Virus record (IMG/VR): IMGVR_UViG_3300012964_000004
Span: 2,312-66,311 of that record
DNA: 64,000 nucleotides
DNA from: a virus
Reading direction: 5' to 3' (one strand)
Part shown: in pieces, positions 20,039-63,700 of the stretch
Layout of the letters: each line of letters opens with the position of its first letter
Numbering within the stretch: the first letter of the stretch is position 1
Notes under the pieces: model-generated
The model's input: only the letters and a program-made list of their open reading frames with translations
What the model was told of the DNA's origin: nothing
Database searches by the model: none
Program-made: the position numbers and the translations under genes

Positions 20039-20270
20039 GAGTCACCTCCGTTGGATCATAGAACCACAGGCCTGTGTTGAAAGGCGGGGGATCTAACAAG
20101 GACTTGGGTGTTAGACAATGGCGGACAGGTCTTTGGGTCATTCGATTTAGCTCATGCCTGATTACGACATACTGCCTGCCATCCTCAATCATCACACCCT
20201 GCATTATTCCTACACCATTTGGCGTTTCAATTTCATCGTTGACTTTGAATTGCTTGATGTTAGCGTTCAT
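20031..20270 (-). CDS. hypothetical protein
   Basis: 79-aa ORF overlapping both neighbours. Confidence 0.5.
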   Translation of the reverse strand: MNANIKQFKVNDEIETPNGVGIMQGVMIEDGRQYVVIRHELNRMTQRPVRHCLTPKSLLDPPPFNTGLWFYDPTEVTHA

Positions 20271-21991
20271 TTCTTTTCTCCCCAGTTGTCGCCGACTATG
20301 TATTCAAACTCAAAGGGTACAGGTGAGCCAGGGAATACCAATTCAACTGCCTGCTTGAATGCCTCTTTCAATAGCAGGACGTAATTGTCAAGCATATCTT
20401 CGGGCACATCCAGCACCAACTCATCATGGATGACCATGCAGACGGGGAAGGGCAGGTGAACTATACGACAGGCCTCCCACAATCTGGCCATCCATGCCTT
20501 GGTCATGTCGGCTCCACCCCCTTGAACTGGATTGTTTTTACAATTATTTTCCCATCCCATAGCATGAATGTTGAGATAGGCTCGGCGTCCATAAGGCGTA
20601 GTCGTAAACTCCAACCGATGGCCGTCTTGTACAGCCCGATCCAGCATTGTCTTGACTCGCGGAAATTTATTGAAATAGGCATCGATATACGTTTGACATT
20701 TCTCCTCGTCCAATTCGCCAGGGTCATCTAGCACCTCCTTCAGGCGCCCGAGTAGGCCGATCGCAGTCAGACCATACACGATACCCAAGTTGATTTCCTT
20801 GCCAATTTTGCGGCGGGGATCATCCTTTTGAATGGTCTCATCTTCGAACAACATACGTGTGACCATCAAGTGCACGTCCTCGTGATTGGCAAAGATGTTG
20901 ATCAAATTCTTATCCATGCTGAGCAGTGCTGTGATGCGTGGCTCCTGCTGGCTGACATCTGCGATGATATATTTGCCATTACGGGGAATGAACAAACTTC
21001 TGAACACAGGCATCTTGCGGGATGGAATGTTCTGCAGATTGGGACTGTCCGAACTCATGCGTCCAGTCGCTGCACCCGTCACGTTCCAGCTACAATACAC
21101 ATCGCCATCTGGTGGGGTAGCATGTTTCTGCAGCCAGACCTCGCCATACGTGGAAACTGCCTTACGATACCCTCGACCTTCACGGATTTTCTGGATGATG
21201 GGCAGGTGCTTGTATTCAGCTAGCGTTTCATCTTCTGTATTGGCCAAGCCAATACCGTATTTGGCAGCGATCATTTCCTTGACCTTCTTGTAGGAAAAAA
21301 CATTCACCCCCAATTCTTCCTCGATGCTCTTACCCTTGGACTCGTTCTCTTTAGCCAGTGTCAGCCAGCCGTCCATATTCACACGGGCAGGCGGCATGTC
21401 TAACACCACCCAGATCATGGGTTCGTCGATGGATATGTAGACCAAGTATTCAGGTCGGCGCTGGTTCAACAGCTTCAACTGCTCTTGGCACACCCGCAGG
21501 GTCATGTAAGTATCCTTGGCTGCATAGCTGTACAATTCGGCTAATGGGATTGATCGGTCACGGATTTGTTCATACTTGTCCTTTTCCATGTATAGACCAA
21601 AGTAACGCCGAGCCATGGATGCCAGACTGAAAGTAGAATAGAACCCGCTCCACAAGATCTTCTCTAACAGCATCGGATCCAAAATGAAGTGGCGATCGAT
21701 CTGAGTAAAGCGCCGTAATTGACGAATATCATAGGTGGCGTTCTGGATGATCCACTGCAAGCTAATCAATCTCATTAGTGCGCTACCAATTATCTTATGA
21801 TCGGTGATGATATAGTTCTTGCCATTATCCAATGACAGGGCGAGGCAGGCGAATTCACCGTGCGGAATATGCAACTTGTCCTTGTCTTGCCCAAACATCT
21901 CTAGGTCGATGGCCACATTGTAGGCATTGGTCACATCGATCTGATCGGCATTTTCAACGATTGAATATTCAACATCAGGTACAGTTTTCAT
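20267..21991 (-). CDS. polA: family A DNA polymerase (3'-5' exonuclease plus polymerase)
   Basis: Exo DLE and QNATYD, TGRMSS..PNLQNIP, motif A DVSQQEPR, motif B RKIGKEINLGIVYG, motif C HDEL. Start placed at MKTV (ATGA overlap with the upstream ORF). Confidence 0.93.
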   Translation of the reverse strand: MKTVPDVEYSIVENADQIDVTNAYNVAIDLEMFGQDKDKLHIPHGEFACLALSLDNGKNYIITDHKIIGSALMRLISLQWIIQNATYDIRQLRRFTQIDRHFILDPMLLEKILWSGFYSTFSLASMARRYFGLYMEKDKYEQIRDRSIPLAELYSYAAKDTYMTLRVCQEQLKLLNQRRPEYLVYISIDEPMIWVVLDMPPARVNMDGWLTLAKENESKGKSIEEELGVNVFSYKKVKEMIAAKYGIGLANTEDETLAEYKHLPIIQKIREGRGYRKAVSTYGEVWLQKHATPPDGDVYCSWNVTGAATGRMSSDSPNLQNIPSRKMPVFRSLFIPRNGKYIIADVSQQEPRITALLSMDKNLINIFANHEDVHLMVTRMLFEDETIQKDDPRRKIGKEINLGIVYGLTAIGLLGRLKEVLDDPGELDEEKCQTYIDAYFNKFPRVKTMLDRAVQDGHRLEFTTTPYGRRAYLNIHAMGWENNCKNNPVQGGGADMTKAWMARLWEACRIVHLPFPVCMVIHDELVLDVPEDMLDNYVLLLKEAFKQAVELVFPGSPVPFEFEYIVGDNWGEKK

Positions 21992-22227
21992 TTTTTCATC
22001 ACATCTTCTCTGATCTTGCGACATGCGATTTCATAATCCAACTCCAATAGGTTGCTGTCATCCACTGGATCTCCTTCATCTGGAGTAAGGGTACCCCGCA
22101 GTAGTTCCTGAGCGCTCTCTTTGTCTAATCCACCCGCCCGATAAACACCAGTGATCATACCCAGACGCAAGCAGCGTGCCAAGATGGTAAGTTCCTGTTC
22201 GCTTAGTGTGTCACCGATTGTTTTCAT
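21988..22227 (-). CDS. hypothetical protein
   Basis: 79-aa ORF translationally coupled on both sides. Confidence 0.5.
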   Translation of the reverse strand: MKTIGDTLSEQELTILARCLRLGMITGVYRAGGLDKESAQELLRGTLTPDEGDPVDDSNLLELDYEIACRKIREDVMKK

Positions 22228-22493
22228 TTAGGTTTTCCTTTACCTTTCTTCTTGACCGTTCCATAATACAAGGTGTGGATGGCTCCACATATAGGACATT
22301 TCTTGCCAGAACCTGCCAAGCTCCAGTTATATGCCTCAACTTCATATTCACAAAAAGGGCAGATGATCCAGGTGGTGCTCCTGCCATGTTGCATAGAGCC
22401 ACGCATCTCTTTGTGTGGGCGTACCTCAAACTTATCAAGATAGTTGGGGTCTGTGTGTCTTTTCATACACTTGGGGTCTGTGTGTCTTTTCAT
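22224..22493 (-). CDS. small zinc-ribbon protein
   Basis: CPFC...CPICG; duplicated N-terminus MKRHTDP x2. Confidence 0.6.
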   Translation of the reverse strand: MKRHTDPKCMKRHTDPNYLDKFEVRPHKEMRGSMQHGRSTTWIICPFCEYEVEAYNWSLAGSGKKCPICGAIHTLYYGTVKKKGKGKPK

Positions 22494-22497
22494 ACGC
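22444..22497. repeat. 27-bp tandem duplication
   Basis: ttggggtctgtgtgtcttttcatacac / ttggggtctgtgtgtcttttcatacgc. Confidence 0.9.
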
Positions 22498-23677
22498 TTG
22501 TCAATCCTATCCAGCCTAGGCTCTCTTCACCCCAAGCTAATTTACCATCGAACGCGACACGGATCGCGCCAGGCCCACCTTCGCGGTAGCCGAAACGCGA
22601 CTTGCCGTTTATGATGTAGCCCGAATTCGGCAGCGGCGGCAGCGTCGGATCGCGCACGGTCGTCGCATAAATTTGGTTCGGGTTATATATGAGGAGGATG
22701 AGCGCAGCCGTGGCTTCAGCCATACCCGAATAGCGCAAGTGGTTGATCTTCGGCACGCCGCCCGTATAGTTGCGGTTCAACTGCGCCAATAAAAAGACGG
22801 GTGCGCCCATGGAATTTTCCTTCGCCAAAGATGCGCACCTTCTATATACATAAGCCATGGACTGTTCGTCCTCTTGGCCTTCGATCAGCATGTCGGAGAA
22901 ATCCACAAAGATGTGGTACACGCCTTCCGTGGCGCTCAAACGCATGGCGTCCGTGTAGACTTCATCCACCGATATTATTTTGTCACAGATTATGACGTTC
23001 CTGCGATGGGCAGGCTCGAGTGGCTTGAGTGCCACCTGTACAATGCGCCGAGCGATCTGACCTGTGGTCATTTCCAGCGTGTATAGCAGTGAGACCTTGT
23101 TCTCCAGCGCAGAATTGGCGATGATCTTGGCAATCAAACTGGTCTTACCCGTTCCTGGCGGCCCGCCCACCACAACCAGGCCAGCTTCGGGCACACCACT
23201 CATGCTCAGATTTTCAGGATCACCACAATGTTCATCGACGGGTGGATAGTAGGTCTTGCGCCACACAGCAGGCTGGCTGTCCACCTGATCCATGTGAATG
23301 TAGCTGCCCTCATAATGGTTAGCTTGATCTATAAGCGTTACGATTTTAGCCACATCCAGATCATCACCCTTGCGCAAGCGTTTGACTTGTTGCTCGAGCA
23401 GACCAATCTGTTTCTCTCTGCGGTAGCAGACCAACAGTTGGGATAACAATTCTTGTATATCCAAGACCTCGCCGACGCTGGCGATGGCTTGCTTGGCCGT
23501 CACCACAGGCATCAAGCCCACCTTGTCGATGATGTAAGGAATGTCCTTGCCTTCCCTTAGATGGTTACAGATTAGGTCATAAGGCGGAGCCAGATATTCG
23601 GGCAGAACATATTGGGCAGATACCCTGCCTTCCAGCAACAGTCCACCCCACAGTTCACTGATGTCTGTGTGCTTCAT
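22490..23677 (-). CDS. DnaB-like (SF4) replicative helicase
   Basis: GPPGTGKT Walker A, TLEM, FVD, LAQLNR, LRYSG..E..A and KSRFG; likely start at MKHT (ORF extends to 23791). Confidence 0.85.
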   Translation of the reverse strand: MKHTDISELWGGLLLEGRVSAQYVLPEYLAPPYDLICNHLREGKDIPYIIDKVGLMPVVTAKQAIASVGEVLDIQELLSQLLVCYRREKQIGLLEQQVKRLRKGDDLDVAKIVTLIDQANHYEGSYIHMDQVDSQPAVWRKTYYPPVDEHCGDPENLSMSGVPEAGLVVVGGPPGTGKTSLIAKIIANSALENKVSLLYTLEMTTGQIARRIVQVALKPLEPAHRRNVIICDKIISVDEVYTDAMRLSATEGVYHIFVDFSDMLIEGQEDEQSMAYVYRRCASLAKENSMGAPVFLLAQLNRNYTGGVPKINHLRYSGMAEATAALILLIYNPNQIYATTVRDPTLPPLPNSGYIINGKSRFGYREGGPGAIRVAFDGKLAWGEESLGWIGLTSV

Positions 23678-23906
23678 CAAATACCATCCAGACGGGAATG
23701 GGATGATCTTTCTTCCAACAAATAGGACACACCCATCCACCCTTCTTCTTGGAGAAGTGCCAGCCTTTGGCTCTGAAATGACTAATGGCATCTTCTTGCC
23801 GAAATGTTTCTATTTCATACCAGCGGGTGCAAGATCCGTCAATGTCCTCATAGACGCATGAGATCAGCCATTGTTTATGTAAATGTATTGACTCTGATAG
23901 TTTCAT
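23655..23906 (-). CDS. small Cys-containing hypothetical protein
   Basis: C..C and GW....GWVCPIC zinc-binding pattern. Confidence 0.5.
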   Translation of the reverse strand: MKLSESIHLHKQWLISCVYEDIDGSCTRWYEIETFRQEDAISHFRAKGWHFSKKKGGWVCPICWKKDHPIPVWMVFDEAHRHQ

Positions 23907-26009: not shown

Positions 26010-26378
26010 TTAGAATTTGCGGTCTCGGGCGCGGAATTCATCGTGCATTTTATCCAAGGCAGTAGCAAGCTGGTCAGCGATATAAGCGATGCCATCGGGT
26101 GTGAGCACAACAAATGATGCGTCGGTTGCTATATCGACTATATATTTATCTTTGAGAGGAATGGTCACTTCCACAGCCACATTATACGGAAACATGAATA
26201 ATGGGCTGTAGGGTTTATATTGAGTGCGATCGGGAGCCAGTTGTGTGGGTATCATGCGAATATGAATGATATTATCTGGATCCATAAATATATGGGACGG
26301 CTGAATTTTCTCACCGAGAGGGGAAACGTAGGTTTCCTTATCGCCGTCATCTGCTCGGGAAAATTCATTATCAGGCAT
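26010..26378 (-). CDS. hypothetical protein
   Basis: 122-aa ORF in the operon. Confidence 0.5.
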   Translation of the reverse strand: MPDNEFSRADDGDKETYVSPLGEKIQPSHIFMDPDNIIHIRMIPTQLAPDRTQYKPYSPLFMFPYNVAVEVTIPLKDKYIVDIATDASFVVLTPDGIAYIADQLATALDKMHDEFRARDRKF

Positions 26379-27924
26379 CTAATTCATCTCCTATTGTAAG
26401 TAAATCCAAGACTGGAATGTCATCCAAGGTGATCAACTGTCCAAAGATTTCCCGTTTGGTTTCGATGAGCCGATGGATACGCTCATCAATGGTATGGCGT
26501 GCGATCAGATAGATAGACTCTACGGCTGAGCGCTGCCCAATACGATGTAAACGTCCTTCGATCTGTTCCTCCCTTCCTGCATTCCACTCACGCTCGACAA
26601 AAATGAGCATATCTGCGGAATACAAATCAATACCTTCACCGCCAGCGATGCTGATGATGGCCACGCGTATTTTGGGATCGATAAGGAAACGCTGGACATT
26701 ATCATAGCGTTCCTTTTGCGATGTATCCCCAACCACTTTGATCGTGCCATATTCGGCTAGCTTTTCTTCCAAGGCAGCCACGACTGCACGATGATGAGCG
26801 AACAAGACTACTTTGTTTTTACTCTTGAGAATATCCTGCGCAAGTTCCACAGCAGGCACAACTTTCATCATGCCAATGACTTGGCGCAGATTAGCAATCT
26901 GCTGCAGGCGGGAAGCACCCTTCCCATCCAGCATAACACGTTTGCGTGTCTCTTCCAATGTCTCTTTATATTTGCGAGCATAGATCTTATCCCAATCCAC
27001 AGGCAAATGCACGCGAGTGATGGCTGGCAGATCCTGCAACACTTCCTGCTTGGTGTGGCGCAGATAATAATTTCCCAGTTCAGTTTTCAATTCACCCAGG
27101 TTGGTGGCACCATCAACATCCCAACCCCACTTGTCCATATAAGCGCCGCAATATTTGATCGCATAGCGCCAATAGGAATTCCAACGCGCAGGATTGAGGA
27201 TGTTCAACTGCGGCCACAATTCAATGGGGCGGTTCAAGAAAGGCGTGCCTGACAGCCCGATTACATAATTAGTTTGTAACGCTTTAGCTGCGCGAGTGCG
27301 CTGGCTCTTGCGATTTGCGAGGTAGTGGCATTCATCATATACGACCAGTTGATAATTATGCGCTTTGATCTCAGCGATCTTGAGCGTGAAAATGGCGTAG
27401 GACATCAAGGTAAATCGGCTACGAATTAGCGGATCCTTGCCCTTGCTGATGATGACCGACTCATCGCCCAACCAATTCTTGATCTCAGCCTGCCATTTAT
27501 ATACCACCGAAGCGGGGCAGACAATCAGCACTGAATGAAAGCCACGCTCTTGAATGAATGCCAGAGTCTCAACAGTCTTGCCCAAACCCATCTCATTGGC
27601 ATTGACGAAGCGTCCGCCTGTCTCGTGCATCCAATCCAGATCAGCCAACTGGAAGGGATATAAACGCTGCCGCACCGCATCCGCTTTGGTAAAGATCGGA
27701 TCCCGACCTAAATCAAGTACGGCTTTATCAATCATAAAGCCGTACTCTTTGCCAAACTTGACCGCTAGCTTGGCTCCGAATTCAGTCGCGGGCATCCACC
27801 ATTGACGCAGATCACCATCGTAGCGCGTATCAGGCAGCGATTTGATCTTGTTCTTCATCCCTGGGGAATAGGGGAAGGAGAACTCAATGCGGTAGTTTCT
27901 AAAATCGATCGACTTATATATCAT
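26371..27924 (-). CDS. SNF2-family (SMARCAL1/HARP-like) helicase
   Basis: LYPFQ, NEMGLGKT, VCPAS, DECH, LSGTP..NRP.EL, GEGIDL and QIEGRLHRIGQ; HARP-like N-terminus. Confidence 0.9.
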   Translation of the reverse strand: MIYKSIDFRNYRIEFSFPYSPGMKNKIKSLPDTRYDGDLRQWWMPATEFGAKLAVKFGKEYGFMIDKAVLDLGRDPIFTKADAVRQRLYPFQLADLDWMHETGGRFVNANEMGLGKTVETLAFIQERGFHSVLIVCPASVVYKWQAEIKNWLGDESVIISKGKDPLIRSRFTLMSYAIFTLKIAEIKAHNYQLVVYDECHYLANRKSQRTRAAKALQTNYVIGLSGTPFLNRPIELWPQLNILNPARWNSYWRYAIKYCGAYMDKWGWDVDGATNLGELKTELGNYYLRHTKQEVLQDLPAITRVHLPVDWDKIYARKYKETLEETRKRVMLDGKGASRLQQIANLRQVIGMMKVVPAVELAQDILKSKNKVVLFAHHRAVVAALEEKLAEYGTIKVVGDTSQKERYDNVQRFLIDPKIRVAIISIAGGEGIDLYSADMLIFVEREWNAGREEQIEGRLHRIGQRSAVESIYLIARHTIDERIHRLIETKREIFGQLITLDDIPVLDLLTIGDELDA

Positions 27925-40937: not shown

Positions 40938-41177
40938 ATGAAGTTATTCAAACGACCTATTTACAAGATCGGGGAGCACATCAAAGTCCACGATCGCAAG
41001 GCAATCAAGTTGTCGCGGCGCGTCGAAGGCCTGCGCTATTTGGCCGATCGTCTGGGCGCAGCCAGAACTAAATTCTGGCACAGGATCCGCCGCCTCTATC
41101 CAGAATTGGATGGGTTCGAGATGAACTACGATTTCACCACGGATGAACTTATTTTGATAAAAAAGAAGGAGATCTAA
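40938..41177 (+). CDS. hypothetical protein
   Basis: 79-aa ORF coupled to the next gene. Confidence 0.5.
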   Translation: MKLFKRPIYKIGEHIKVHDRKAIKLSRRVEGLRYLADRLGAARTKFWHRIRRLYPELDGFEMNYDFTTDELILIKKKEI

Positions 41178-41728
41178 TGACAGAAAAATTGATGATTGCC
41201 CAGGCCATGAATGAGGTCAAGCTGGCCGAGAAGAAAATTCAGTCCTCGCTCGAATTCATTCTGCGCAACCTCTTGCGCGAGGAAGATCGGCGCGATCCGT
41301 TCGCCAAGGATGGCACTACCCAGGAAGCCATGGTCAAGTCAGCCCTGCAGTCCATCCAGGATAATGAGAAACGCATCGTGAGCCTCAAGCTGGCTATCAA
41401 CAAGATCAACTTGGAGACCAGTTTGACTGTGGAAAGCATGAGTGCTACCATCGCGGAGTGGCTGATCTGGCGCCGCGACATCCTGCCTCCACAGAAACAG
41501 CGCCTGCAGGCGTTGGTGCAGCGCATGACTGCCGCCCTGGGCGAGCCTTCCATCGCTGCGCGGCGAACGGCTGCTGCCGCAGGCGTGCAGTTTGAGAAGG
41601 TGCAGATCATCGTCAACTTGTCCGAAAAGGATTTGATGGCAGCTATCCAGAAGCTGGATACCATCGAAGAGCGGCTGGACGCTATGCTCAGCATGGCCAA
41701 CGCCACTACTCCGATCGAAGTATTATAA
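41177..41728 (+). CDS. DIP1984-like long coiled-coil protein
   Basis: IAQA....K..I....E....P....I...K.AI.K.N..T.....TIAEW...RRD...D..L...NA.T.I pattern recalled for this family; AAGGAG RBS. Confidence 0.65.
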   Translation: MTEKLMIAQAMNEVKLAEKKIQSSLEFILRNLLREEDRRDPFAKDGTTQEAMVKSALQSIQDNEKRIVSLKLAINKINLETSLTVESMSATIAEWLIWRRDILPPQKQRLQALVQRMTAALGEPSIAARRTAAAAGVQFEKVQIIVNLSEKDLMAAIQKLDTIEERLDAMLSMANATTPIEVL

Positions 41729-41733
41729 TGAAA

Positions 41734-42016
41734 TTGGCTTTCGGTTGCGAAATCGTGAGAATGTGCTTGGAACTCAAGGGTTCGACTCCCTTACCACGCT
41801 CTGGTATGAGCACAGGCTTGAAACCTGATCGCCCCCAGTGGGCGCACCTCAACGTTCAGCGCTTATGACTCAACGATTTTCTTCTCACAGTTCAACGGGT
41901 AAAGCGCAACGGTTTTTCAAAAACCACTATTGGTCTGGTTCGGCGCAGAAATGCGCCAAATGCTCCACCACCAAGCAGGAGCACTCACAGGACGGTGGCT
42001 GCAATCTGGAAGCCAA
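41734..42016 (+). ncRNA. putative structured non-coding RNA (~283 nt) of unknown family
   Basis: 5' TTGGCTTTCGGTTGC pairs with 3' GCAATC(T)GGAAGCCAA; nested GTGAG/CTCAC and TGTGCT/AGCACA stems; T-arm hairpin, GNRA hairpin and 7-nt repeats. Confidence 0.7.
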
Positions 42017-42043
42017 AGTAATCCTTACTTAGAAGGAGGATTT

Positions 42044-43699
42044 ATGCGTAAATATGTCAAGTACCATTATGCCAGCCTTATGACTCCCTTCCCAGAAATG
42101 GAAGAGTTGGAAGTTGACAAGGTAAAGAAAAAGAACTGGCGCATCCGCCTGTCCAATCAGCACTTCGCTCTGCGCATCCATGGGGGCAACCGCATCAAGA
42201 ACCCCGCTAGGAGAAATCAGTGAGTAAACCTGTAAGTTCACCTTCGATTTCAATAGATTGGATCGAGATCACAATCAAGGATACGACTGTTTGTCTGACA
42301 GTGGATGAGGTCAGGCAATTGGCCGCACTCTTGGACGATCTGTTGGGAAAAGCGTTTTCAGGATCTTGGACGATTACCAGTGCACCTTCTGGTAACGTAA
42401 CCCAGACAGGATAAACCATGCTAGGCTTTTGGAAAGGCCGCCCAGTCTATAATATTTGCAGTTCAGACTATTTTGACCCCACGGTGTGTACTTCCACTGG
42501 GGTGGATAGTCGTTTCATGCCACCCAATGTCATGTATCCGAACTGGGAGCCAGCCCATTCTGGTAAGCTGCGCTGTGACTATTGTGGACGAAAAAATCAT
42601 GCGGATGACGAGATCTGTGAAAGCTGCGGTGCCCCCTTATGAGTAGACTGAAACTGGAGGACGTAATCAATTTTGATGAACTGCCCACCGATCGAAGGAT
42701 GGGACTCCTTTTCGTTCCCATTTCGGTTGGCAAGAACATTGAACAGTTCTGGAGTAAAGATGCGCAGGCCGATATACTCTGGCACCGCTATTATTCTGCC
42801 CTCGGCGCGACTGCAATTTTGATCCACCATCCAGTTCTTCCACCTGTAGAGGATCTTCCACAGATGGATCTGCCTGTCTATGACTGTGAGATGGTCTTTT
42901 ATAAGAACGGAACGATTGAATATATCTATAGGAGGATAGCTTGATAAATGAGGATGCCACTAAATTGCTGGAAGCTATGCGCAAGGCCAACGCCATTGTG
43001 GACGATTACTTGTATGCGCCCTTTCCTGACAGCCAGGAAGAGATTGAGGTGGAAATTACGGAGGTGATGGAAGAGCTTCATGAAATTCTCAACCCTATTG
43101 TTGAAGAATATGACAATATTGGGACGGTCTAATCGCCATGGCTCGCACAAAAGGCGCCAAGGGCAAGTACCAACCCCGCGCTAAAGGCTACATTGTCAGC
43201 TATCCAAGCCTGGGTATTCACTATTTTGTCCATGCTTTCGATGACAGTCGGGCAAAATGGCTTGTAGTCAAGCGCCTGAAGCGTGCGCGGGGCTTCACTG
43301 AGGCTATCGCACTGCGCTTTCGGGCACTTGATAACACCGTAATCACTCTAAAAATGCTGGAAGATCTTGGTTATTCACTCTTTGAGAGCCAAAAGGGGCG
43401 GAATTATTGGTTGACACATCCGCTTTGTACCTGTGAATTCTGTATGGAGCAGCTTTATGCCACACAAATTTCGTAATCCTACCCTTGAAGTGGTGGTCGT
43501 TATGTCTCCCGCTCAACTTTTGGCGATTACTGAGAAATCTCTGAAGGAATTTTCATTCGCACGCGGGCTGATACAGTGGAATTTGGCGGGTAGGAAGCCA
43601 ACTCACCTGCGTGCACGCAGGTTGGAGCTAGATAAACAGGGTTTGAAGGTCTTTCCAGAGGACGAAGCCATCCCCGCCTTCATAATTTCGGCGAAATAA
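42044..43699 (+). other. cluster of small hypothetical ORFs (42044-42223, 42220-42414, 42418-42642 zinc ribbon, 42639-42944, 42941-43132, 43138-43476, ~43457-43699)
   Basis: Head-to-tail coupled ORFs with RBSs; CDYCG..CESCGAP in 42418-42642. Confidence 0.55.
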
Positions 43700-53025: not shown

Positions 53026-53258
53026 TGGCAAAGAAAAAATGGGCATCGAAGGCCTGGGAGAAGGTCAAGGAAGGTTCGCTCACCAAGATGGGTTGGCCAG
53101 ATCGCAACAAGCTGCTGGCGGCTGCCCGCCGCGATCGAGCAGGCGTCATGCGCAAGTTGAATTTCTTAGCGAATGCCAGTAAGGACGATGCTACCAAAGC
53201 CAAAGCTCGAGCCATCGCCAATTTCATCAAGAACACGCTCGACAAAGGCGAAGATTGA
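53025..53258 (+). CDS. small basic hypothetical protein
   Basis: TAATG-coupled; starts MAKKKW...KEGSLT. Confidence 0.55.
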   Translation: MAKKKWASKAWEKVKEGSLTKMGWPDRNKLLAAARRDRAGVMRKLNFLANASKDDATKAKARAIANFIKNTLDKGED

Positions 53259-54850
53259 TGTTTCCCAGGATTTTCCCTAGGGATAAGATCAAGTTGCCCG
53301 ATGTGGACAACGATGTGAAACCCTTTTCCATTGGCTTTACAAAGTGGGTGGAGAAGCATGGTTTCTTAGTGCGCGAGACTTGGGATGCGGATACATACAA
53401 GTGGGCGGGTGCGGGTTGGTTGCAGCTTCTTCCACATCAGCGAGAAATCCTAGATCTTGCGTTACAAATGCAGGACGGTGTTTTCAAATACAGTACTGTG
53501 CTGTTTTCAACCATCAAAAAATCTGGCAAGACAATGTTGGGTGCTGCAGTAGGTAGCTGGTATGCAGAGGTGGCGCCGCCAGGAACGGAGATCTATGTTA
53601 TCGCCAATGACCTGGAGTCAGCCGAAGGGCGTGTGATGCGAGACATCAAATACCATGCTGCTCATCGCGGTTACGCTTACACAAAATATGAAGTCACCTT
53701 GCCGAACGGTACATCCATCAAAGCTCTGGCGCAAAACTACCGCTCCGTCGCTGGCACCCGTCATGCTTTGACTATTTGGGACGAGTTGTGGGGTATCACT
53801 TCTGAATTGACTCGCCGCACCTATGAAGAGATGACACCCATCCCAACCATTCCTTGGTCGTTGCGCTTCATCGCTACTTACGCTGGCTTCATCAATGAGT
53901 CGGATCTGCTATGGGAATTGTATATCAATGGAGTCGGTCGAGATGAACATGAGGATGGGCATGGTAAGCTCTTCTTCGACCAGATCGACAAACCCATTTG
54001 GGAAAACGGCCGCCAATTCACCTATTGGAACCACGAACCGAACATGCCTTGGCAATCACCTGACTATTATGAAGAGCAGCGCGACTCGCTGCGCCCTGCA
54101 GCTTATTTGCGCTTGCATGAAAATCGTTGGGTAACCACCCATGAAGAATTTATACCCATCGAATGGTGGAGTGCTGCCGAAGTGCACTTCCCTGACTCGG
54201 CTGAACTGTGGAAGGATCATCCCTACGCCAAGTTCCCAGTCTACATGGGCGTAGATGCTGCACCCAAGCGCGACTCCACTTCAGTGGTGGGCGTTACTTA
54301 TGATCCGAGCAAAGGTGTAGTCATTGAATTATTCCATCGGATCTGGACGCCAATCAATGTCCAGCTTGATCTGGACGAGACCATGAAACAATTCATCATC
54401 GACATGACCAAACGCTTCTTGGTAATCAAGATTGGCTATGATCCCTCGCACTTATATCAGCTTATGCTGAACTTGTACAAGGATGGTTTTCCTGTTTCTG
54501 AGTTCACCCAGACAGTGAGCAATATGACTAGAGCGTCACAAAACTTGTATGACCTCTTGAAATTTAGGCGCTTTTACACGTATAAAGATGATGAGGCTAG
54601 AACACATATTCAAAACACAGTTGCTCAAGCTGAAAGCGGCGGTATGCGCATTGTCAAAATTCAAGGCAGCCCAGGCAGGAAAAAGCCAGTGGATTATTCC
54701 ATAGCCCTGGCCATCGCCGCATATTTGGCTGTCCAGGGCGGCGGCATCGATGTCTCCCAACCCTTGACGTTGGAAGCGCCCTTCTCAGATTTGACAGCCT
54801 GGAAAAATCCAAGCGATCGAATTATTGTACCCTGGCAATTCAGGACTTAG
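53255..54850 (+). CDS. terL: terminase large subunit
   Basis: PHQ, KKSGKT Walker A, IWDELWG Walker B, YLRLHENRW, MGVDAA..RD RNase H motif and YDP. Confidence 0.9.
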   Translation: MMFPRIFPRDKIKLPDVDNDVKPFSIGFTKWVEKHGFLVRETWDADTYKWAGAGWLQLLPHQREILDLALQMQDGVFKYSTVLFSTIKKSGKTMLGAAVGSWYAEVAPPGTEIYVIANDLESAEGRVMRDIKYHAAHRGYAYTKYEVTLPNGTSIKALAQNYRSVAGTRHALTIWDELWGITSELTRRTYEEMTPIPTIPWSLRFIATYAGFINESDLLWELYINGVGRDEHEDGHGKLFFDQIDKPIWENGRQFTYWNHEPNMPWQSPDYYEEQRDSLRPAAYLRLHENRWVTTHEEFIPIEWWSAAEVHFPDSAELWKDHPYAKFPVYMGVDAAPKRDSTSVVGVTYDPSKGVVIELFHRIWTPINVQLDLDETMKQFIIDMTKRFLVIKIGYDPSHLYQLMLNLYKDGFPVSEFTQTVSNMTRASQNLYDLLKFRRFYTYKDDEARTHIQNTVAQAESGGMRIVKIQGSPGRKKPVDYSIALAIAAYLAVQGGGIDVSQPLTLEAPFSDLTAWKNPSDRIIVPWQFRT

Positions 54851-57785: not shown

Positions 57786-57795
57786 GAGGTAATTG

Positions 57796-60700
57796 ATGGA
57801 AACCGATAAGGCACCTTTCTGGAAAGACCCCAAATTCAAACGGACGGTCAAACAACTCCAGGCGCTATATTCAGCGCGTCTGGCAGCTAGACAAGCGGCT
57901 CGCAAGTTGTGGCAGCGCTCGAGCAACTATGCTGCGGCCAATCGAATTCCTAATGTGGTCTCATCTGCCCAGTCGCAGGTACAAGCTCAGCGCAAACCCA
58001 TCATGGGTATGCCCGATCGGGAGATGGAAATCATCCAGCGCATCCCTACTATCCAGCAGACAGTCACGCAGCCTACTACCAAGACGCCCCAGGGAGCACC
58101 GCCCGTCAGCGTGGATCCGAGCATTATTCAAGGCGCACCCGCTTACTATGATCCACAAACCAATCAAATTACTAACAAACTAACCAATACCAAACTATTC
58201 AATTTGAATGGTGAGGTGATCCCGACCAATCAAGCAGATGATGGTTCCTGGCTGGTGCCTGATGAAATGCAGAGATTAGGCGTCACGCTAAACCAAATGA
58301 CCGAGGCGATTTACACGCCCGATATGTTGGAACAATTCAACTATGTGCCCAGTGCGGATGAAATCATTCCACCCCTGGGTTTCGATGTTGCTTCCATAGA
58401 GGGTGAGAATTTATATTATGATCCGCTCACCCATCGCATCACGACCACGCCGACCCAAGTCCAATATTTCTGGACGCCCGATGGTAATGAGATTACTCAG
58501 CAGCGCTTTGCGGTGGAGCATGGCCGCCTTATTCCCAATCAAGAAGTCAAGCTGGATGCAAATACCCGAGCACTCATCGATGCGATCCTGACAACGCAAA
58601 AAAGCCAAGCTGATGCCACGGCGCTCTTGGTGGAAAGAGGATCGCCTGTTTCTCCAGGTCAGGTAATTCAAGGCAGCAATCAAATCAGCCAGACAGATTA
58701 TCAGAATATGTTCAAGCCCTGGGTGAAAGCCACTCAAGAGGCTGAGGTTCTGCGGGTGGGCGAGCAATATAGTGAGACGGGTGAATTGCTGAAGGAAGGC
58801 ACAGTCATCTTCACCACACCTGCTACACCTGGGTTGCAATTACCTGCAGGCCTTTCCAATATGTTGGAAACTACACCTTTTGGAAGGCTGGTCATGTATG
58901 TCCCACCTTGGAACCCACTATCTTGGAACCCCAAGACCAAAGCGATTGCACAAGAAGCTTACCGCAAAGTTTTGGATCGGGTGGCTGGTGGCTTGATCTA
59001 TTTGTTTTCGGAGTCCAACTGGTGGCTCAAGCAGAAGTTCTTTTCTAACGCTCGTGATATGAAGCGTCAATCTGGCTTTGGGGATTGGTTGCCATCTGCG
59101 GCTGCCACTACTCTGACCGTGGCAGTCGGACTGCCTTGGGCGGCCGTTCACCTCCTCGGCGCCCCCTTTGTTTCCATTTGGGACAAAGAAAAGGGTGCAG
59201 AGTGGCGGACTTTCGGAGAGAAGGTCAAGCGAGAGTGGCAGAACAAGATGTCAGTCATGACCGATCAATTCTTGGAAACCACTCTGTTCTATCAGGGTTC
59301 GCCTTCCTCTGGTCTATCCTTGTCTCCTACTCAATATGATCTCCTCATGGAAAATTATTGGACTGGAATTGAGACAGGAGCGAATCAAACTTGGGGCGAC
59401 TATCTTGGGGAAAGTGGTGTCACGGCTGTAAAGATCAGACAGCACGCCGATCGAATGAATGGCAAGATGACCATCGGTTGGGATTATGTCCAGCGGGCGC
59501 AGCTAGCCTGGAATGAAGGCCGCCAAGAGGAAGCTGTCACGCTCATGACCGAAGGTCTGTCTGACATTCTGGTGTACGGTCTGGACTATGCAGCTTTTGG
59601 AAACTATGCACGGCACGAGTTTGATCCCAAATGGAAGCCCAACCAAGTGGGCGCTGACGCCTTCTTAGATAAGACCATCCCTGTTTCATCCGAAGAATTG
59701 GACTGGGTTTACAAATTGGTGGCACTGAACAATGCCGAGAAATTCATGAGCTTGTTTGCTAAATGGGGAACGCCTGAAGAGCAACTCACCCTAGCCAAGA
59801 ATTTGGGGTCAGGCACGAACTATTTGTTCATTCGCCAGCTAGCCATGAATGCGCTTGAGTCTGGCCGAATGCCTACCATTCATGAGATTTACAATGAGGC
59901 CTTTCCTTGGTTGAAGGGCTATGCAGCCAATCCAATGAGCACCAAGCAGATCCGCGAGTTCATTCAGAAGGACTCGATTGCTTTTCATGATCGTGCTCGA
60001 GAATTGGCACTCATCTCGACTGCCTATGAAAAGCAGGCCAATGCCTGGGGTGATGAAAATGTAGCTGAGAAGGAACGGTTACTTGGATTGGCACGCAAAT
60101 TTATGAACGAAGCCAAGAACTTGCTGGATGCAGCTTATGAATTGGATCGCAAAGCTGGTGGATTGGATCCGTTCGCCATGTATTCTTGGGATGCCTATCC
60201 AGAGAAGTACAAGGAGTTCAAGCAGCGGTTGGCCGAAGCTGAGATCCAACTAGGCCGTCCGCCCACGCGCAACGAAATTATCGATGTTGGCTACCAGTAT
60301 GCCGATTTTGTTTATGAGGCTTCGGGCGAAGCCATTATTGATGTTTTCAACTTATTGGAGTCTCTCAAAATTGGGAAGATAGCGGGCGAAGTATCTAAGA
60401 ATGCGCTCACCGTCGCGCTATCAAAATCCAAAGTTGGCCGCAATCTCACTTCAGCCTGGATGCAGACAGTAGATGACATGATTGAGTCCCGACGCATTCG
60501 CCACATGAAAAATCGCGCTTTCGTCTCCCAAGGTTTCAAACAGCAACAGTGGACGACCAACCTGATAAAGGACATCGCAGATACCAAACCGACCAGCAAA
60601 GATGAACTTCTGTGGCAGGTGCAGCGAGCAGCCAATCAAATCAATGCAATTTCTTTGGCTAAAAATCCAGAAGAATATCAGCAATTAGTGCGATCGGCCA

Positions 60701-63700
60701 GAAACGTTTTACCTGTTACAGTTTCTGAGCGTTCGTTAGCGGATGCTCGCTACGTACTGGGCACGCTGGATGCAGACAAATGGAAAGATCTAGTGGATGA
60801 TGTCTGGGAAGATGCTTCCAATACATTTCTTGATCGCTCGGCCAAGGAAATAAAGCGCGAACTCAAGAAAAATCCCATCCCAACAGGCATGGATGTTGAA
60901 GAAGTTATGCGCAATCGCATTCAGGCCAAACTGAACAATTACTTGTACAGTCAGCACGGTCTATATAAGATTGCTCAAGAAACGGGTGAACGCATCAAGC
61001 GGTTATTCCTGCGAGAACACGAGGCCTGGGCGGGTTCGATTTTCCAAAAAGATACCTGGATGGCCAAACTGGGTCTTGCCAATTTACCTCCAGAAAAGGT
61101 TGGCCCTGGGCTGGTAAAGTTCCGTAAGGGTATCAATATCACCTACCAGATTAGCCGCTGGTTTATGAACGCTTGGGTGTGGGCAACGCTGGCTCGCCGC
61201 CCCGCCTGGATGCTATTCAACTTCTATGACAACACCTTCCGCTTCCTGGTCAGCGGTTCGGCTGACAGTTTGCACGATGTCATCTACTTGATGAAACGTT
61301 ATGTCGGCATAGATGTGGAAAAAGAGATAGGACTCAGAGCCGAGGTGACTACATCCATGCAGGCGGCAGCCTTCAATGTAATGATTGAGCAGACAGGTCT
61401 GGGAGAGAAGATTACCCATCTGCAAAGCATCCTGGATTTCGCAGACAATCCTTTTGGCTTTCTATCTCATTACAAATCGAACTACAAAGTTCTGACCGAT
61501 GGAAAGAATGTGGCTGCACATGCTTACGCGGTCTGGCGGGCGTTCCCGCTGTCAGTCAAAACCTTGGCGTCTGCGATCGAGGTTGGTTCCCGCGTGCGCA
61601 TGTACTACAAGCTCTTCATGAAGAATGTGGCCAAAGTCAACACACCCAGATTGTTGGCGCTGGTTACTGAAGGTCTGGTTGAGCGATTGATCAAAGCAGG
61701 CATGTCTCAATCAGATGCAGCCAAGTGGGTGGCCTATGTGCGAGACTTATGGAATTATTCAGGTATGCACGTAGAGCAATTTGAGAATATGCTCAGCCAT
61801 CTATCTCAGACCAGCAAGCAAGCAGATGTGATTTATCTGCCGAAAACACTGAAAGAAATAGAGTGGGTAGATGAGGCCTCCGTGCGCCCATTGATCATGT
61901 CAGTGAGTGACCAGTTGCAGGAATTTATCAGCGATTTGGTCAAGGGTGAGAATGTCCGCAAGTTAGATAAACGCCATTCCGATATGTTCTTTGACCGCGT
62001 GATCAATACGCTGGATAAGGAAGTCAGGGCGCGGCTGGATAATGTTTTCAACAAGCAACGTGCGATTATCGAGGCAGTGGATCTCAATGAAGCTCGGCGC
62101 GGTTACACTGCAGGCAAATACACGCCTGAGCGTGAAGTTGAAGAAACGGTTACTTCGACGGGCGAAGAAGCTATGAAGGACATTCCCAAGAGCGCCAAAG
62201 AACTCACTCCCAAGCAACGCAAGAAAGCTGTCAAGGCGCTCAAGGATAACAAGATCGCTACTTCTGGGGATGACACCAGCTTGCTGAGCGGCATGGATCA
62301 GTTGCGTCAGAAGTCTGACAAATTGGAACGCAAGAAAATAAAACCAGCTTCGCCTGAGAAGATGAAAGACATCGAAGAGAACATCGAACTCGGCACCAAG
62401 TCAGGTCGGCCACTCACGGATGCTGAGATCAACAAGATGGATGAAGCTATCGATGCCGCCTTTCCTGGTGGACGCCGCATCCCTGCAGGGCAAAGTGAAG
62501 CTACCAGTGCTCGAGCCGTGCGCGATTATTTTGGTCGAGCCGACTGGGTGAACAATCCTGCCTTTGCAATTTTGGATGAAGGTGAAAAAGCACAACTATC
62601 GGCTCACATCATCAATCTGGTGGATGAGACCCGCAACTATTCAGCGCGGATGCGCTCATTCTGGATCCTGGTCTTTCCAGGCCCACGCCAATTTGACAGC
62701 GCAGGCAAGCTCATCTTCACCGCATCCACGAAACGCGGTTGGGAAATGTACGACTCGCTGGCTGCGCGAGGTTGGTACAACCAGAGCGATCTGTTCGATA
62801 TGCTGCTGGATGATGTCAAAGCAGGTCGCATATCTTTGGAGAACACACTCACTGCCCGCCAAATGTTAGAGATGTATGGTTTCGATGTTGAATTCGATGC
62901 CAACGGTCTATTGTCAGGCGTGCGCGTTCATGATCCTATCAGCAACGAATGGCGCTTCTCTTCATCGCCTGTATATCTGAACCAATTCAAACAATTCACA
63001 GGTGTGGGATCGCTGAAGAGTTATGAGACCAGCATTCAATCCTCCACCTTTGGCGTGGTTGCAGCTTCACCACGAGGCATGGCAATCAATGCCAAGATTA
63101 TTCCGCAACCATTTGAAGATTTTGACAGCATGGTCAGGAACAATCCACGCTTGTCTGCCTACATTCAGCAGAACAGGGTCAAGGATGCCAATATCCTGAT
63201 TGCCAGCCAATTCCAATATCCGATGTTCTTTACTCGTGGTGGGCGCAACATTCCATCCGATTTACGCTTGATGAACAAGATATGGAGCGATCTGGGAGAT
63301 GAGGCTAAGGCCGCTTACAAGGTGTTGGATGATGTACCGCCCAGTGTAGTGCATGAGGTGCTGAGCCGTTGGGCACAGACTTCCTTTGGTTATCGTCTGG
63401 ATCATGTCATCAGGAACTTACGCGATGATTTGATCCAAGTGGCCAGAAAGCAATACGGCTGGACAGAAGCCACTGCTCGAGAATGGTTTGAACTTTGGAA
63501 CCGCAACTTCTCCAATTTTGCCGATCTCATTAGCGAGATAAGTGATAGGAAATACACAGCGGATGAATTGTGGGCTGCGGTCATTCAAGGTTTTTACTCT
63601 CAGGGTGTACCTGTTTCGGCCACCACCTTTGTTGGCAGGGATGGGCGCAGATTGCTGGCACATTCCTACCTGATGGATTTTGTCGATCGACGCATGGGTG

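Follow-up and report, generated by a model that had tools for sequence, protein, structure and literature searches.

What kind of molecule carries a run of eight heptamers in a viral genome, and what might read it? The run lies in the 64-kb window, the whole stretch of viral DNA analyzed here (64,000 nt of an IMG/VR record). The letters and coordinates that the initial annotation gave for its two four-heptamer blocks proved exact on re-reading. Block 1 consists of CTCAACG (41848-41854), TTCAGCG (41855-41861), CTTATGA (41862-41868), and CTCAACG (41869-41875). After the spacer ATTTTCTT, block 2 follows with CTCACAG (41884-41890), TTCAACG (41891-41897), GGTAAAG (41898-41904), and CGCAACG (41905-41911). 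In the 66 nt ending at 41911, identity at lag 7 is 0.424 vs 0.245 in 2000 dinucleotide shuffles (p = 0.0035), and lag 14 also exceeds the shuffles (p = 0.002). There are 59 copies of CAACG on the + strand of the 64 kb and 36 on the minus strand, and the tract is the sole place in the window, on the + strand, with at least four copies within 64 nt. The tract lies in an intergenic gap that separates the replication module from the late module.

The 7-base periodicity is genuine and beyond chance, and here the comparative data are decisive. The initial annotation had named periodicity in homologous loci as a check, and it is found there. Across 47 distinct tracts from such loci, identity at lag 7 is 0.477 vs 0.277 (z = 22), with further signals at lag 14 (z = 14) and lag 21 (z = 9). 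The top lag between 2 and 12 is 7 in 39 tracts, 8 in six, 9 in one, and 10 in one. At lags 5 and 6, identity does not exceed the shuffle level. The register is held over four units: in right-anchored columns, the first position of AAMG holds an A in 39, 42, 44, and 40 of the 47 tracts. The layout of the window tract, four units, a spacer, and four units, recurs in relatives. The spacer measures 8 to 10 nt in 37 of the 47; the remaining ten measure 11 nt (three), 12 nt (one), 17 to 19 nt (four), or 1 to 2 nt (two). About one-quarter of relatives have an AGGA-like spacer.

The family consensus of the unit is Y-U-N-A-A-(A/C)-G. Position 3 is free and positions 1, 2, and 6 are variable, with C at position 6 in 20% of units; this C occurs in the window too. 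The consensus first put forward for the window, YTCAACG, describes most of the eight units, but CTTATGA and GGTAAAG fit it poorly; GGTAAAG does fit the family consensus. Units are of the AAAG type in the main phage clade and of the CAAGG type in the most diverged phage branch (L061/L063), the latter as judged by eye.

Features of the heptad-repeat RNA locus, in coordinates of the 64-kb window
Feature	Position	Strand	Basis and remarks
Gene for the 183-aa partner protein, distant DIP1984/DUF6847 relative	41177..41728	+	Profile and fold matches, linkage
Whole structured ncRNA, ~280 nt, P1 5' to P1 3' strand	41736..42014	+	Alignment, consensus fold, pair counts, RNA contigs
P1 5' strand	41736..41748	+	Pairs with 42001-42014; 13 pairs, 88.3% of cells paired, 9 compensatory
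Pseudoknot 5' strand GUGAG, conserved junction	41755..41759	+	Pairs with CUCAC, 41984-41988
Variable domain	41765..41847	+	Sequence
Heptad block 1, 4 units	41848..41875	+	Sequence, periodicity, family layout
U-rich spacer, 8 nt	41876..41883	+	Spacer length in relatives
Heptad block 2, 4 units	41884..41911	+	G of the last unit invariant across the family
Linker ending in A-run, just 5' of P2	41912..41923	+	AAA invariant in 47/47 relatives
P2a 5' strand	41924-41928	+	Pairs with 41994-41998
P2b 5' strand	41933-41936	+	Pairs with 41990-41993
P3 hairpin, conserved purine-rich hexaloop AGAAAU	41942..41957	+	8/8 pairs covary
P4 hairpin	41961..41983	+	6/6 pairs covary
Pseudoknot, P2b, P2a, and P1 3' strands with near-invariant GGCUGC	41984..42014	+	Alignment, pair counts

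The tract had been placed inside a noncoding RNA, and we find that this RNA is genuinely structured. In an alignment of 46 RNAs of 249 to 352 nt (A3), 91.0% of cells are paired, vs 64.9% after shuffling (none of 500 shuffles was as high) and 38 to 45% in a slid-alignment control. Changes on both sides of the pair are seen in 36 of the 41 pairs. All five pairs of the pseudoknot covary (92.2% paired); for the window itself, this pairing was taken from the sequence because the window row is shifted by 2 to 3 columns in A3. Helices P2a and P2b are 99.1% and 94.5% paired, with compensatory changes in eight of their nine pairs. G-U wobbles in P1 assign the RNA to the + strand. The linker AAA may form a triple helix with the pseudoknot.

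The RNA is also present in RNA libraries. Two metatranscriptomes from two studies each hold one contig that lies wholly inside the RNA and is 100% identical to it (41773-41990, depth 11.5, and 41797-41993, depth 5); these contigs attest to presence only, and not to ends, strand, or level. The same runs have no cover on 41100-41772 or 41994-42300, including the flanking open reading frames. DNA carry-over is unlikely because the flanks are uncovered, and solely on that ground. DNA run X1 gave no contig and provides no DNA control. A simple + strand scan of the flanks found no sigma-70-type promoter or intrinsic terminator; phage-specific signals fall outside such a scan.

These data bear on whether the repeats act as double-stranded DNA, in the form of iterons, a packaging site, or a promoter array, as direct repeats in an intergenic gap between two modules might suggest. 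We consider such a role barely credible. RNA helices with strong compensatory changes and G-U pairs that specify the strand enclose the tract, it was recovered from RNA libraries without its flanks, and a 7-bp pitch would be out of phase with the DNA helix.

At the family level, the tract is the unpaired core that it had appeared to be from the window. The RNAalifold consensus places no helix in it save one trivial 2-bp pair. Folded alone, the window sequence pairs GCGCUU with AAGCGC inside the tract, a pairing that is not conserved in the family. A hairpin between the two blocks was rejected, as block 1 pairs with block 2 at 42 to 45% vs 40 to 43% for mismatched partners. Mini-hairpins of adjacent units were likewise rejected, their pairings matching the expectation from composition. 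Mimicry of an anticodon loop, to which Y-U-N-A-A-A-N bears a resemblance as a 7-nt loop, was set aside given stemless units and the frequency of C at position 6.

We show that one gene travels with this RNA. The gene immediately upstream in the window is present in all 45 loci compared, and every other real gene cluster is present in at most 5 of the 45. By nhmmer, 47 of 56 viral loci have the RNA 3' domain next to this gene and in the same orientation. Two of the nine misses are cut by a contig end, and of the other seven, each of the six that were read carries a diverged heptad RNA, as judged by eye. Among loci from MAGs, the RNA is found in 10 of 12, and the remaining two are cut, giving 10 of 10 usable loci. 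Searching from the RNA side gives the same partner, which lies beside all seven RNAs found through a 15-nt RNA motif alone. Hits of that motif scan are mostly chance, with 89 of 96 loci having neither the RNA domain nor the protein (both scans pooled); a stricter first RNA pattern scan gave four loci, with the RNA truly in one (L065). To this extent, the choice of the adjacent protein in the initial annotation is supported, its gene being the sole one that accompanies the RNA. The RNA lies downstream of the gene in all but two of the 47 viral loci, and comes first in L040 and L055. This swapped order shows that it is the linkage that is kept, and not a particular untranslated-region position.

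Phages carrying the RNA were binned with Chloroflexota, Gemmatimonadota, Armatimonadota, Acidobacteriota, Pseudomonadota, and Bacillota. In the 50,697 records of a GenBank phage collection, tblastn found no match to the window protein or to a typical relative, and blastn with the RNA found none in that collection.

The gene content also bears on a template or processing array, which had been suggested as an alternative to binding sites. This suggestion is unsupported: the neighborhood has no conserved gene for a polymerase, a reverse transcriptase, or a nuclease. More broadly, the repeats might serve as a template copied by a polymerase or as a guide that base-pairs with a repeated target. A single strand enclosed by a long-range helix, with a pseudoknot beside it, does recall templating RNAs. 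Nevertheless, we regard this as very improbable: the surroundings have no conserved polymerase or reverse transcriptase gene, degenerate units suit a protein site better than a template, and the other strand shows no enrichment for the complement of the motif in the window, as the strand counts of CAACG given above indicate.

What, then, is the partner protein? It matches phrog_1491 (E 4e-16). Its match to DUF6847 (PF20935) has an E of 0.0016 and 18.8 bits, below the 27-bit cut-off, and NCBIfam NF038048 (curated cut-off 70 bits) gives no match to it at E<=0.01. Of 43 relatives, NF038048 matches 14 (best E 4e-6) and PF20935 matches 7. On these profile scores, the protein is a distant relative of DIP1984, and is not a member by the curated rule. 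The DIP1984 family still carries the legacy name “septicolysin” in papers.

The AF2 model (pLDDT 92.5) predicts a four-helix bundle with a small beta-sheet tip. Foldseek matches this model to a solved DIP1984 member, 3kdq (E 3.3e-3, TM 0.56/0.65). In VIA-align, 3kdq is the sole full-length row (Z 10.9, 152 of 152 residues, rmsd 5.6); the match is supportive and not decisive, because its Z is under the ~13 advised for helical bundles. Residues conserved in the family (T6, I7, T8, E9, N78, W95, R100, and N175) map to one tip of the predicted model. The window protein has the N-terminus MIAQAM, where the family motif is TITEAL.

The partner protein is also predicted to self-associate. In complex prediction its self-association score is 0.64, and the best of three controls scores 0.02. 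In calibration, 20 of 30 proteins solved as one-chain pairs reached the mark used, as did 1 of 23 solved as single chains, with the proviso that the calibration used two copies, and the partner protein was run as four copies with an alignment of our own. At least 79% of contacts are shared between the complex runs, and the partner pLDDT is at least 83. Contacts 75-75 and 97-68/71 point to a two-fold dimer, which, from the secondary-structure map, may be parallel, its two tips lying together at one end. The initial annotation had envisaged a coiled-coil oligomer or filament. Self-association is supported by the predictions; the predicted form, however, is a four-helix bundle in a two-fold dimer, with no filament or tetramer.

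We find that the same design accompanies bona fide DIP1984 genes of bacteria and plasmids. Downstream of these genes lies an unannotated RNA whose tract has a 7-nt period; across 14 such RNAs, lag-7 identity is 0.373 vs 0.265 (z = 6.7). Their units are of the GUAC/GUAA type, unlike the phage motif. A different motif beside true DIP1984 genes is as expected of protein-specific sites. Motif type varies with protein branch; shared descent confounds this pattern, part of which was assessed by eye. The DIP1984 family occurs in 15 of 301 sampled Bacillota genomes (~5%) and in 371 PLSDB plasmid records, of which 342 are from Acinetobacter. A control search also located a DIP1984 gene in the non-pathogenic Deinococcus radiodurans. 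At gathering thresholds, Rfam has nothing overlapping the bacterial element in 12 loci; noise matches in L183:1-1600 lie elsewhere.

We propose that this tract is the functional, conserved segment of a structured phage RNA, which we name heptad-repeat RNA. Its 13-bp closing helix and pseudoknotted 3' domain would keep ~64 nt single-stranded in a closed loop. This loop would display eight copies of Y-U-N-A-A-A/C-G (CAACG-type here) at a strict 7-nt pitch, four before and four after a U-rich turn. The likeliest ligand would be the DIP1984/DUF6847-like four-helix bundle encoded upstream. That the tract comprises eight single-stranded sites for dimers of this co-encoded protein, a candidate named from linkage alone, has in our estimate somewhat less than an even chance of being correct. 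Each protein tip would read one heptad. A two-fold dimer could then bridge a heptad of block 1 and a heptad of block 2, antiparallel after the turn at the spacer, and four dimers side by side on one RNA would form a defined ribonucleoprotein. The RNA might store or neutralize the protein, in the manner of sponge RNAs and RNA antitoxins, or the particle itself might be the active unit.

The reader could instead be a host factor. The RNA would then be a sponge or decoy for a conserved host RNA-binding protein or RNase, with the neighboring protein a helper or unrelated. The motif is kept in phages of many phyla, and a universal host factor could equally read it; the RNA appears more abundant than its flanks in the RNA contigs; and the AGGA-like spacers would also be in keeping with this explanation. 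We nonetheless judge it unlikely, as it leaves unexplained the constant adjacency of one particular protein gene, the shared design beside chromosomal bacterial DIP1984 genes, and the repeat motif that differs between protein branches.

Alternatively, no protein may be involved, and periodic adenines may make tertiary or intermolecular contacts in an architecture of RNA only, similar to the large, ornate RNAs of phages that self-assemble. In keeping with this are the A richness of the units, the invariant AAA that precedes P2, and the presence of tRNAs in a phage setting, which is also described for GOLLD and ROOL (PMC5737381). The bacterial RNAs, however, share the 7-nt pitch and not the A-rich motif, which makes the pitch, and not the adenines, the common feature. 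In addition, ~41 bp of helices are too few to receive eight evenly spaced docking units, and no covariation ties the units to the rest of the RNA. We therefore hold an RNA-only architecture to be quite improbable.

Binding of the co-encoded protein to the heptads, the reading that we prefer, has partial parallels among known systems. The sponge RNAs CsrB and RsmZ carry GGA motifs, mostly in hairpin loops and irregularly spaced, and control how much free CsrA/RsmE is available, a small beta-sandwich protein encoded elsewhere whose two-fold dimer binds two motifs at once. Heptad-repeat RNA is similar in being a stable RNA with many short single-stranded motifs, and its ~8 sites would suit ~4 dimers. 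It differs in that its units are AAMG-type, 7 nt apart, unpaired, and closed off by a pseudoknot, and its candidate protein is a helical bundle encoded next door. With no GGA in the unit consensus and no match to the Rfam Csr/Rsm models, it falls outside the CsrB/RsmZ group.

TRAP is an 11-mer beta ring that reads 9 to 11 (G/U)AG triplets, 2 to 3 nt apart, in a nascent mRNA leader and acts by attenuation. The initial annotation had invoked it. The principle of even short repeats on a single strand, read one unit per subunit by an oligomer in the Bacillus trp leader, does carry over. The pitch of 7 nt instead of 5 to 6 nt (lags at which the family has no signal), the eight units in two blocks, and the folded stable ncRNA do not, which leaves TRAP as an analogy only.

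In type III toxin-antitoxin systems such as ToxIN, tandem ToxI-type repeats of 34 to 40 nt lie upstream of the toxin and are cut by it, the toxin being a ToxN/AbiQ-like endoribonuclease. The likeness lies in a pair of protein and repeat RNA with no other fixed neighbor, scattered patchily over phages, plasmids, and chromosomes. Heptad-repeat RNA, unlike ToxI, has 7-nt units within one folded RNA that is usually downstream, and its partner is predicted to share the fold of 3kdq, which differs from that of the toxin. PADLOC assigned no significant family to 43 members of the partner family, with weak matches in one or two, and we know of no toxicity or nuclease motif in this family. The operator of T4 gene 32 combines a pseudoknot with A-rich unstructured repeats that bind a cooperative protein with a site size of ~7 nt, and forms the 5' leader of its own mRNA, covering the ribosome-binding site. 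Here, too, a phage RNA has a pseudoknot beside an unstructured repeat tract; heptad-repeat RNA, in contrast, is closed, accumulates separately, and is mostly 3' of the gene.

Other ornate phage RNAs are less similar. GOLLD and ROOL are structured phage RNAs of unknown function, often beside or containing tRNAs (PMC5737381, in part), and RNAs of this type are also treated in bioRxiv 10.1101/2024.12.08.627333. They are much larger and are covered by dedicated Rfam models, none of which matches here, and the portion of PMC5737381 consulted describes no heptad tract or fixed protein partner for them. UG27 ncRNA arrays have units of 135 to 167 nt beside a reverse transcriptase (bioRxiv 10.64898/2026.09.22.753630, in part). 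Unlike UG27, retron, and DRT systems, heptad-repeat RNA is without a reverse transcriptase gene, its sole conserved neighbor being the DIP1984-like gene. TAACTGA heptamer repeats have been described in Beggiatoaceae (PMC4679880, in part), with a motif that differs from that of the heptad RNA.

Heptad-repeat RNA is apparently an undescribed class of structured RNA. Rfam 15 gives no match at gathering thresholds in the whole window and none at E<=10 in 41500-42300. The literature searched makes no mention of DUF6847, and DIP1984 is not mentioned among the matches listed. The main text of PMC5737381 contains neither septicolysin, nor DIP1984, nor heptamer. The RNA is likewise not described among the matches listed; supplementary motif lists of RNA-discovery papers could contain it.

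A wider proposal, which we put forward as possible and on balance doubtful, is that DIP1984/DUF6847 proteins and heptad RNAs form a widespread, unrecognized two-gene ribonucleoprotein module of bacterial chromosomes, plasmids, and many uncultivated phages, in which a pseudoknot-locked single strand of eight sites at a 7-nt pitch assembles protein dimers into a defined stack. If so, this might be a new RNA-controlled protein switch, for example RNA-antitoxin-like or one timing infection, unrelated to Csr, TRAP, and ToxIN. It would offer a first clue to the function of a domain-of-unknown-function family with a solved structure, 3kdq, and would add an unusual class of structured RNA in which a pseudoknot closes off an unpaired tract of strict periodicity. 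Compact, with an RNA of ~280 nt and a protein of 183 aa, the phage version is directly testable in vitro.

The variable domain of the RNA has a character of its own. In the window, a T-arm-like hairpin (41776-41792) is followed by ACCA and then by hairpins at 41814-41826 and 41830-41844. ARAGORN finds no tRNA or tmRNA gene in the window, leaving the T-arm-like hairpin as the one such element. In 18 of 45 relatives, the same program finds a full tRNA embedded at this site. An insertion site that takes whole tRNAs in these relatives represents a natural case of a tRNA used as, or tolerated in, an RNA scaffold.

The heptad tract identifies an apparently new class of RNA, one associated with an uncharacterised protein family. 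Its eight heptads are present in the window sequence exactly where the initial annotation had placed them. The window's + strand contains 59 copies of CAACG, and at least four copies within 64 nt are found at the tract only. Across the 66 nt ending at 41911, identity at a lag of 7 nt is 0.424, compared with 0.245 in 2000 dinucleotide-preserving shuffles (p = 0.0035), with a further signal at lag 14 (p = 0.002). Homologous loci, which the annotation had suggested as a check, share this period: the lag-7 value in 47 distinct tracts is 0.477 vs 0.277 (z = 22), and multiples of the period also stand out (z = 14 at lag 14, z = 9 at lag 21). Seven is the top lag in 39 of the 47 tracts; the remainder peak at 8 (six tracts), 9 (one), or 10 (one).

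Features of the window at and around the heptad-repeat RNA, in window coordinates
Feature	Position	Strand	Remark
Giant ORF	2-6136		>2000 aa; runs past window end; single weak PHROG match of unknown function
Major head protein	6981-7988		PHROG match
Endolysin-like protein	15358-16290		PHROG match
DNA polymerase	20267-22024		leftward replication block; PHROG match
Helicase	22490-23791		leftward replication block; PHROG match
Helicase	26371-27924		leftward replication block; PHROG match
183-aa ORF (partner protein)	41177-41728	+	upstream of gap
Gap holding the heptad locus	41729-42043		315 nt
Heptad-repeat RNA	41736-42014	+	
RNA contig, run 1	41773-41990		depth 11.5
T-arm-like hairpin	41776-41797		core GGGUUCGACUCCC, then ACCA; hairpin itself 41776-41792
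RNA contig, run 2	41797-41993		depth 5
Heptad block 1	41848-41875	+	four units
Spacer	41876-41883	+	
Heptad block 2	41884-41911	+	four units
Small hairpin directly 3' of the RNA	42016-42046		single-sequence fold; AUCCUU with AAGGAGGAU
59-aa ORF	42044-42223	+	downstream of gap, close to start of rightward gene block
74-aa ORF	42418-42642		second gene past the RNA
ORF, 1234 aa	46077-49781		no PHROG match
ORF, 921 aa	49781-52546		no PHROG match
Large terminase	53255-54850		PHROG match
Giant ORF	57793-63999		>2000 aa; runs past window end

The tracts parse simply into four units, a spacer, and four units. Aligned by the last unit's invariant G, the 47 tracts keep register through all four units of block 2, giving a profile per unit of Y(0.71) U(0.54) N A(0.86) A(0.75) A/C(0.61/0.20) G(0.72). 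The spacer is U-rich or UYAGGWUU and measures 8-10 nt in 37 of the 47 tracts. Other lengths are 11 nt (three tracts), 12 nt (one), 17-19 nt (four, with a hairpin inserted in several), and 1-2 nt (two, which are probably mis-parsed). Because the same layout of units and spacer recurs across the relatives, the 4 + 8 + 4 arrangement originally read from the window is the architecture of the whole family.

We aligned 46 distinct full-length copies of the RNA (249-352 nt). RNAalifold predicts a closing helix P1 of 13 bp, P2 in two parts (5 + 4 bp), and two hairpins, P3 of 8 bp and P4 of 6 bp. From the alignment we added a pseudoknot between 5 nt of the conserved 5' junction and the 5 nt directly 5' of the P2 3' strand. 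Standard pairs fill 91.0% of 1885 cells, compared with 64.9% after shuffling (none of 500 shuffles reached the real value) and 38-45% with partners displaced by 1-3 columns; both sides have changed in 36 of the 41 pairs. The pseudoknot pairs in 92.2% of cases and covaries in five of five pairs. P1 contains conserved U-G and G-U pairs, which would be A-C mismatches on the opposite strand; the RNA is therefore read from the + strand.

Given this structure, the tract is a long single strand that runs from the first strand of the pseudoknot to P2 and is looped by P1. RNAalifold found no real helix in it among the 46 RNAs. A helix between the two blocks would be expected to show about 90% standard pairs; aligned antiparallel and in register, blocks 1 and 2 show 42-45%, and blocks taken from different RNAs show 40-43%. 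Mini-hairpins between adjacent units were likewise rejected, their pairings being at the composition expectation (z from -2.4 to +1.3). The window's own sequence allows a 6-bp helix within the tract, which is not conserved across the family. Thus, at the family level, the heptads are motifs rather than helices, in agreement with the unpaired core described initially.

The RNA is closely linked to the gene for the 183-aa protein. We fetched related viral loci with this protein, six at first and then 56 by profile. By eye, the first six share an order after the gene: a common 5' motif, a tRNA or hairpins, short A-rich repeats, and a common 3' part. Profiles were built for the 5' and 3' RNA parts, and the 3' domain was found on the gene's strand in 47 of the 56 loci. 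Two of the nine others (L019 and L058) end 36-232 nt from the gene, and of the remaining seven, the six inspected by eye (all except L039) carry diverged copies of the RNA that contain runs of heptads. In two phages the RNA precedes the protein gene on the same strand (L040:528-810 and L055:1184-1451). A scan of one genome per species added 12 loci, every one from a metagenome-assembled genome; their labels include Chloroflexota, Gemmatimonadota, Armatimonadota, Desulfobulbia, Emcibacteraceae, Vicinamibacterales, and Clostridium, and the RNA is present in all 10 that have enough downstream DNA.

When all ORFs up to ~3 kb from the RNA were compared across 45 loci, the 180-aa protein was present in every one (45 of 45). 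A second ORF cluster, in 41 loci, is the antisense shadow of the partner protein, and no other cluster is common to more than five loci. The association also holds in reverse. A search of the viral collection with a 15-nt RNA motif, together with loci from an earlier, stricter pattern, gave 96 loci; seven contain the RNA 3' domain, all seven with the protein, and the remaining 89 have neither and are chance matches. The protein branch that has diverged furthest among phages (23-25% identical to the window protein in the protein alignment) is accompanied by heptads reading UUCAAGG or UUGAAGG instead of AAAG-type (L061:2008-2400 and L063:759-1100), a candidate case of the motif changing together with the protein.

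The modelled partner protein (pLDDT 92.5) is built of four long helices plus a small sheet whose four strands come from the N-terminus, a hairpin, and the C-terminus; invariant and near-invariant family residues map to the sheet end. The sole full-length structural match is 3kdq, an uncharacterised protein of Corynebacterium diphtheriae (Foldseek E 3e-3; VIA-align Z 10.9 over 152 of 152 residues). Sequence models weakly concur with a DIP1984 relation: NF038048 (the DIP1984 family) matches 14 of 43 relatives and DUF6847 seven of 43, and the window protein is under every family cut-off. It also matches phrog_1491 (E 4e-16), whose label, "tail fiber protein", is without other support. No relatives were found by tblastn in 50,697 GenBank phage records.

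Because the partner protein is a DIP1984 relative, Bacillota were searched with NF038048, which exceeded its cut-off in 15 of 301 genomes. The 260 nt 3' of bacterial DIP1984 genes are unannotated and clearly conserved. Structured elements occupy the ~200-260 nt past DIP1984 genes in Bacillota, on a cyanobacterial plasmid, and on an Acinetobacter plasmid (L172-L184, L191, and L192). In them a common 5' motif is followed by hairpins, some of them T-arm-like, then by the periodic stretch and a CUACC...CUGAC segment that is nearly invariant; most copies also have a G-rich motif on the 3' side. In 13 bacterial elements, long-range helices surround the periodic stretch, with compensatory changes in nine of 11 predicted pairs. 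Over the 56 nt before the CUACC segment in 14 RNAs, two of them plasmid copies (one cyanobacterial, one from Acinetobacter), lag-7 identity is 0.373 vs 0.265 (z = 6.7), with z = 3.4 at lag 14. The repeat motif is GUAC/GUAA-like, not AAAG-like.

Gene neighbours of bacterial DIP1984 genes vary. The family occurs in 371 PLSDB plasmid records, 342 of them Acinetobacter. The Picosynechococcus plasmid copy has all element landmarks; in the Acinetobacter copy, the 5' motif, periodic part, and CUACC...CUGAC are present and no G-rich 3' motif was seen. Two Bacillota genomes carry two DIP1984 genes ~2 kb apart (G108:C4, L175/L188; G018:C35, L174/L189), and the second-copy element L188 keeps CUACC...CUGAC and has lost the G-rich 3' motif. 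Since bacterial and plasmid DIP1984 genes carry an RNA of like design, a 7-nt periodic tract in a closed RNA seems to go with the protein superfamily as a whole, its motif shifting with the protein branch.

The reading with the best support takes the eight units as sites that an oligomer of the neighbouring protein would bind. Strict periodicity, a lack of pairing, and conserved sequence are what a repeated reader would need. Adenine-specific RNA-RNA contacts are an alternative, against which the pitch is kept while the motif changes by protein branch, as a co-evolving reader would predict. The partner protein is the only co-inherited gene, which argues for it as that reader. A template role, also raised in the initial annotation, is without support.

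Folded as four copies, the partner protein scored 0.64 (best of three controls, 0.02), with contact agreement of at least 79% and partner pLDDT of at least 83. Among proteins solved as same-chain pairs, 20 of 30 reached the self-association mark, as did one of 23 solved as single chains; these counts are only a rough guide because the calibration used two copies and other alignments. Predicted contacts 75-75, 97-68, and 97-71 suggest a two-fold dimer along helices 2 and 3, and from the secondary-structure map we infer that it would be parallel, with the conserved tips at one end. A two-fold dimer reads opposite-running strands, which two equal blocks and a short turn supply. We therefore propose that four dimers could bind each RNA, each linking unit i in block 1 to unit 9-i in block 2, while P1 and the pseudoknot would act as a clamp and as exonuclease protection. 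The self-contained protein and RNA pair is scattered patchily over phages, plasmids, and chromosomes, a pattern typical of modules that are selfish or involved in conflict, RNA-antitoxin systems among them. Neither toxicity nor a nuclease motif nor a match to a defence family was found.

Neither the phage RNA nor its bacterial counterpart matches a family in Rfam 15. In the literature searched, we found no mention of DUF6847, nor of DIP1984 among the septicolysin papers listed; as far as their accessible text shows, those papers use "septicolysin" purely to label genes, chiefly on Acinetobacter plasmids. PMC5737381 mentions neither septicolysin, DIP1984, nor heptamers in its main text. Among the matches listed by wider searches, nothing fits the heptad-repeat RNA; the UG27 ncRNA arrays (bioRxiv 10.64898/2026.09.22.753630), in the accessible part of that preprint, are a different system of 135-167 nt units beside a reverse transcriptase. 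A description of the RNA was not found in the open main texts searched, and it may have been listed earlier as an unnamed candidate motif in a supplementary list or a subscription journal.

The stretch is present in five DNA runs, possibly its source, and a small share of it in two metatranscriptome runs from two different studies. Over 41100-42300, each RNA run gave one contig, 100% identical and wholly within the RNA, although uninformative on its ends, strand, and level; the protein gene and downstream ORFs gave none in either run. A DNA control run gave no contig over the same interval. Because DNA carry-over is unlikely to select the same ~200 nt twice, we read this as accumulation of the RNA well above its neighbours.

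In 18 of 45 relatives, ARAGORN detects a complete tRNA within the RNA, always directly past the 5' strand of the pseudoknot (for example, L002:961-1037, L009:2099-2171, and L048:2092-2168). Their anticodons vary: Ile (five); Leu, Arg, and Ser (two each); Thr, His, Glu, Lys, and Tyr (one each); and three unassigned. In L035, L055, and L056 the tRNA adjoins the RNA instead. Excision of an embedded tRNA would leave the RNA as two pieces joined by P1 and the pseudoknot. At this site ARAGORN finds no complete tRNA in the window, only the T-arm-like hairpin. The run 2 contig begins at the first base past its ACCA, which could reflect a processing site or chance.

The IMG/VR virus record is 66,311 bp long, has direct terminal repeats, and is rated complete; the window covers its bases 2312-66311, and its layout was assigned by PHROG matches. 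The 74-aa ORF has a C-terminal zinc-ribbon signature, under Pfam cut-offs, and is not conserved beside the RNA in the other loci compared. In the small hairpin directly 3' of the RNA, AAGGAGGAU is the ribosome-binding site of the 59-aa ORF, making translational coupling of this ORF to the state of the RNA possible.
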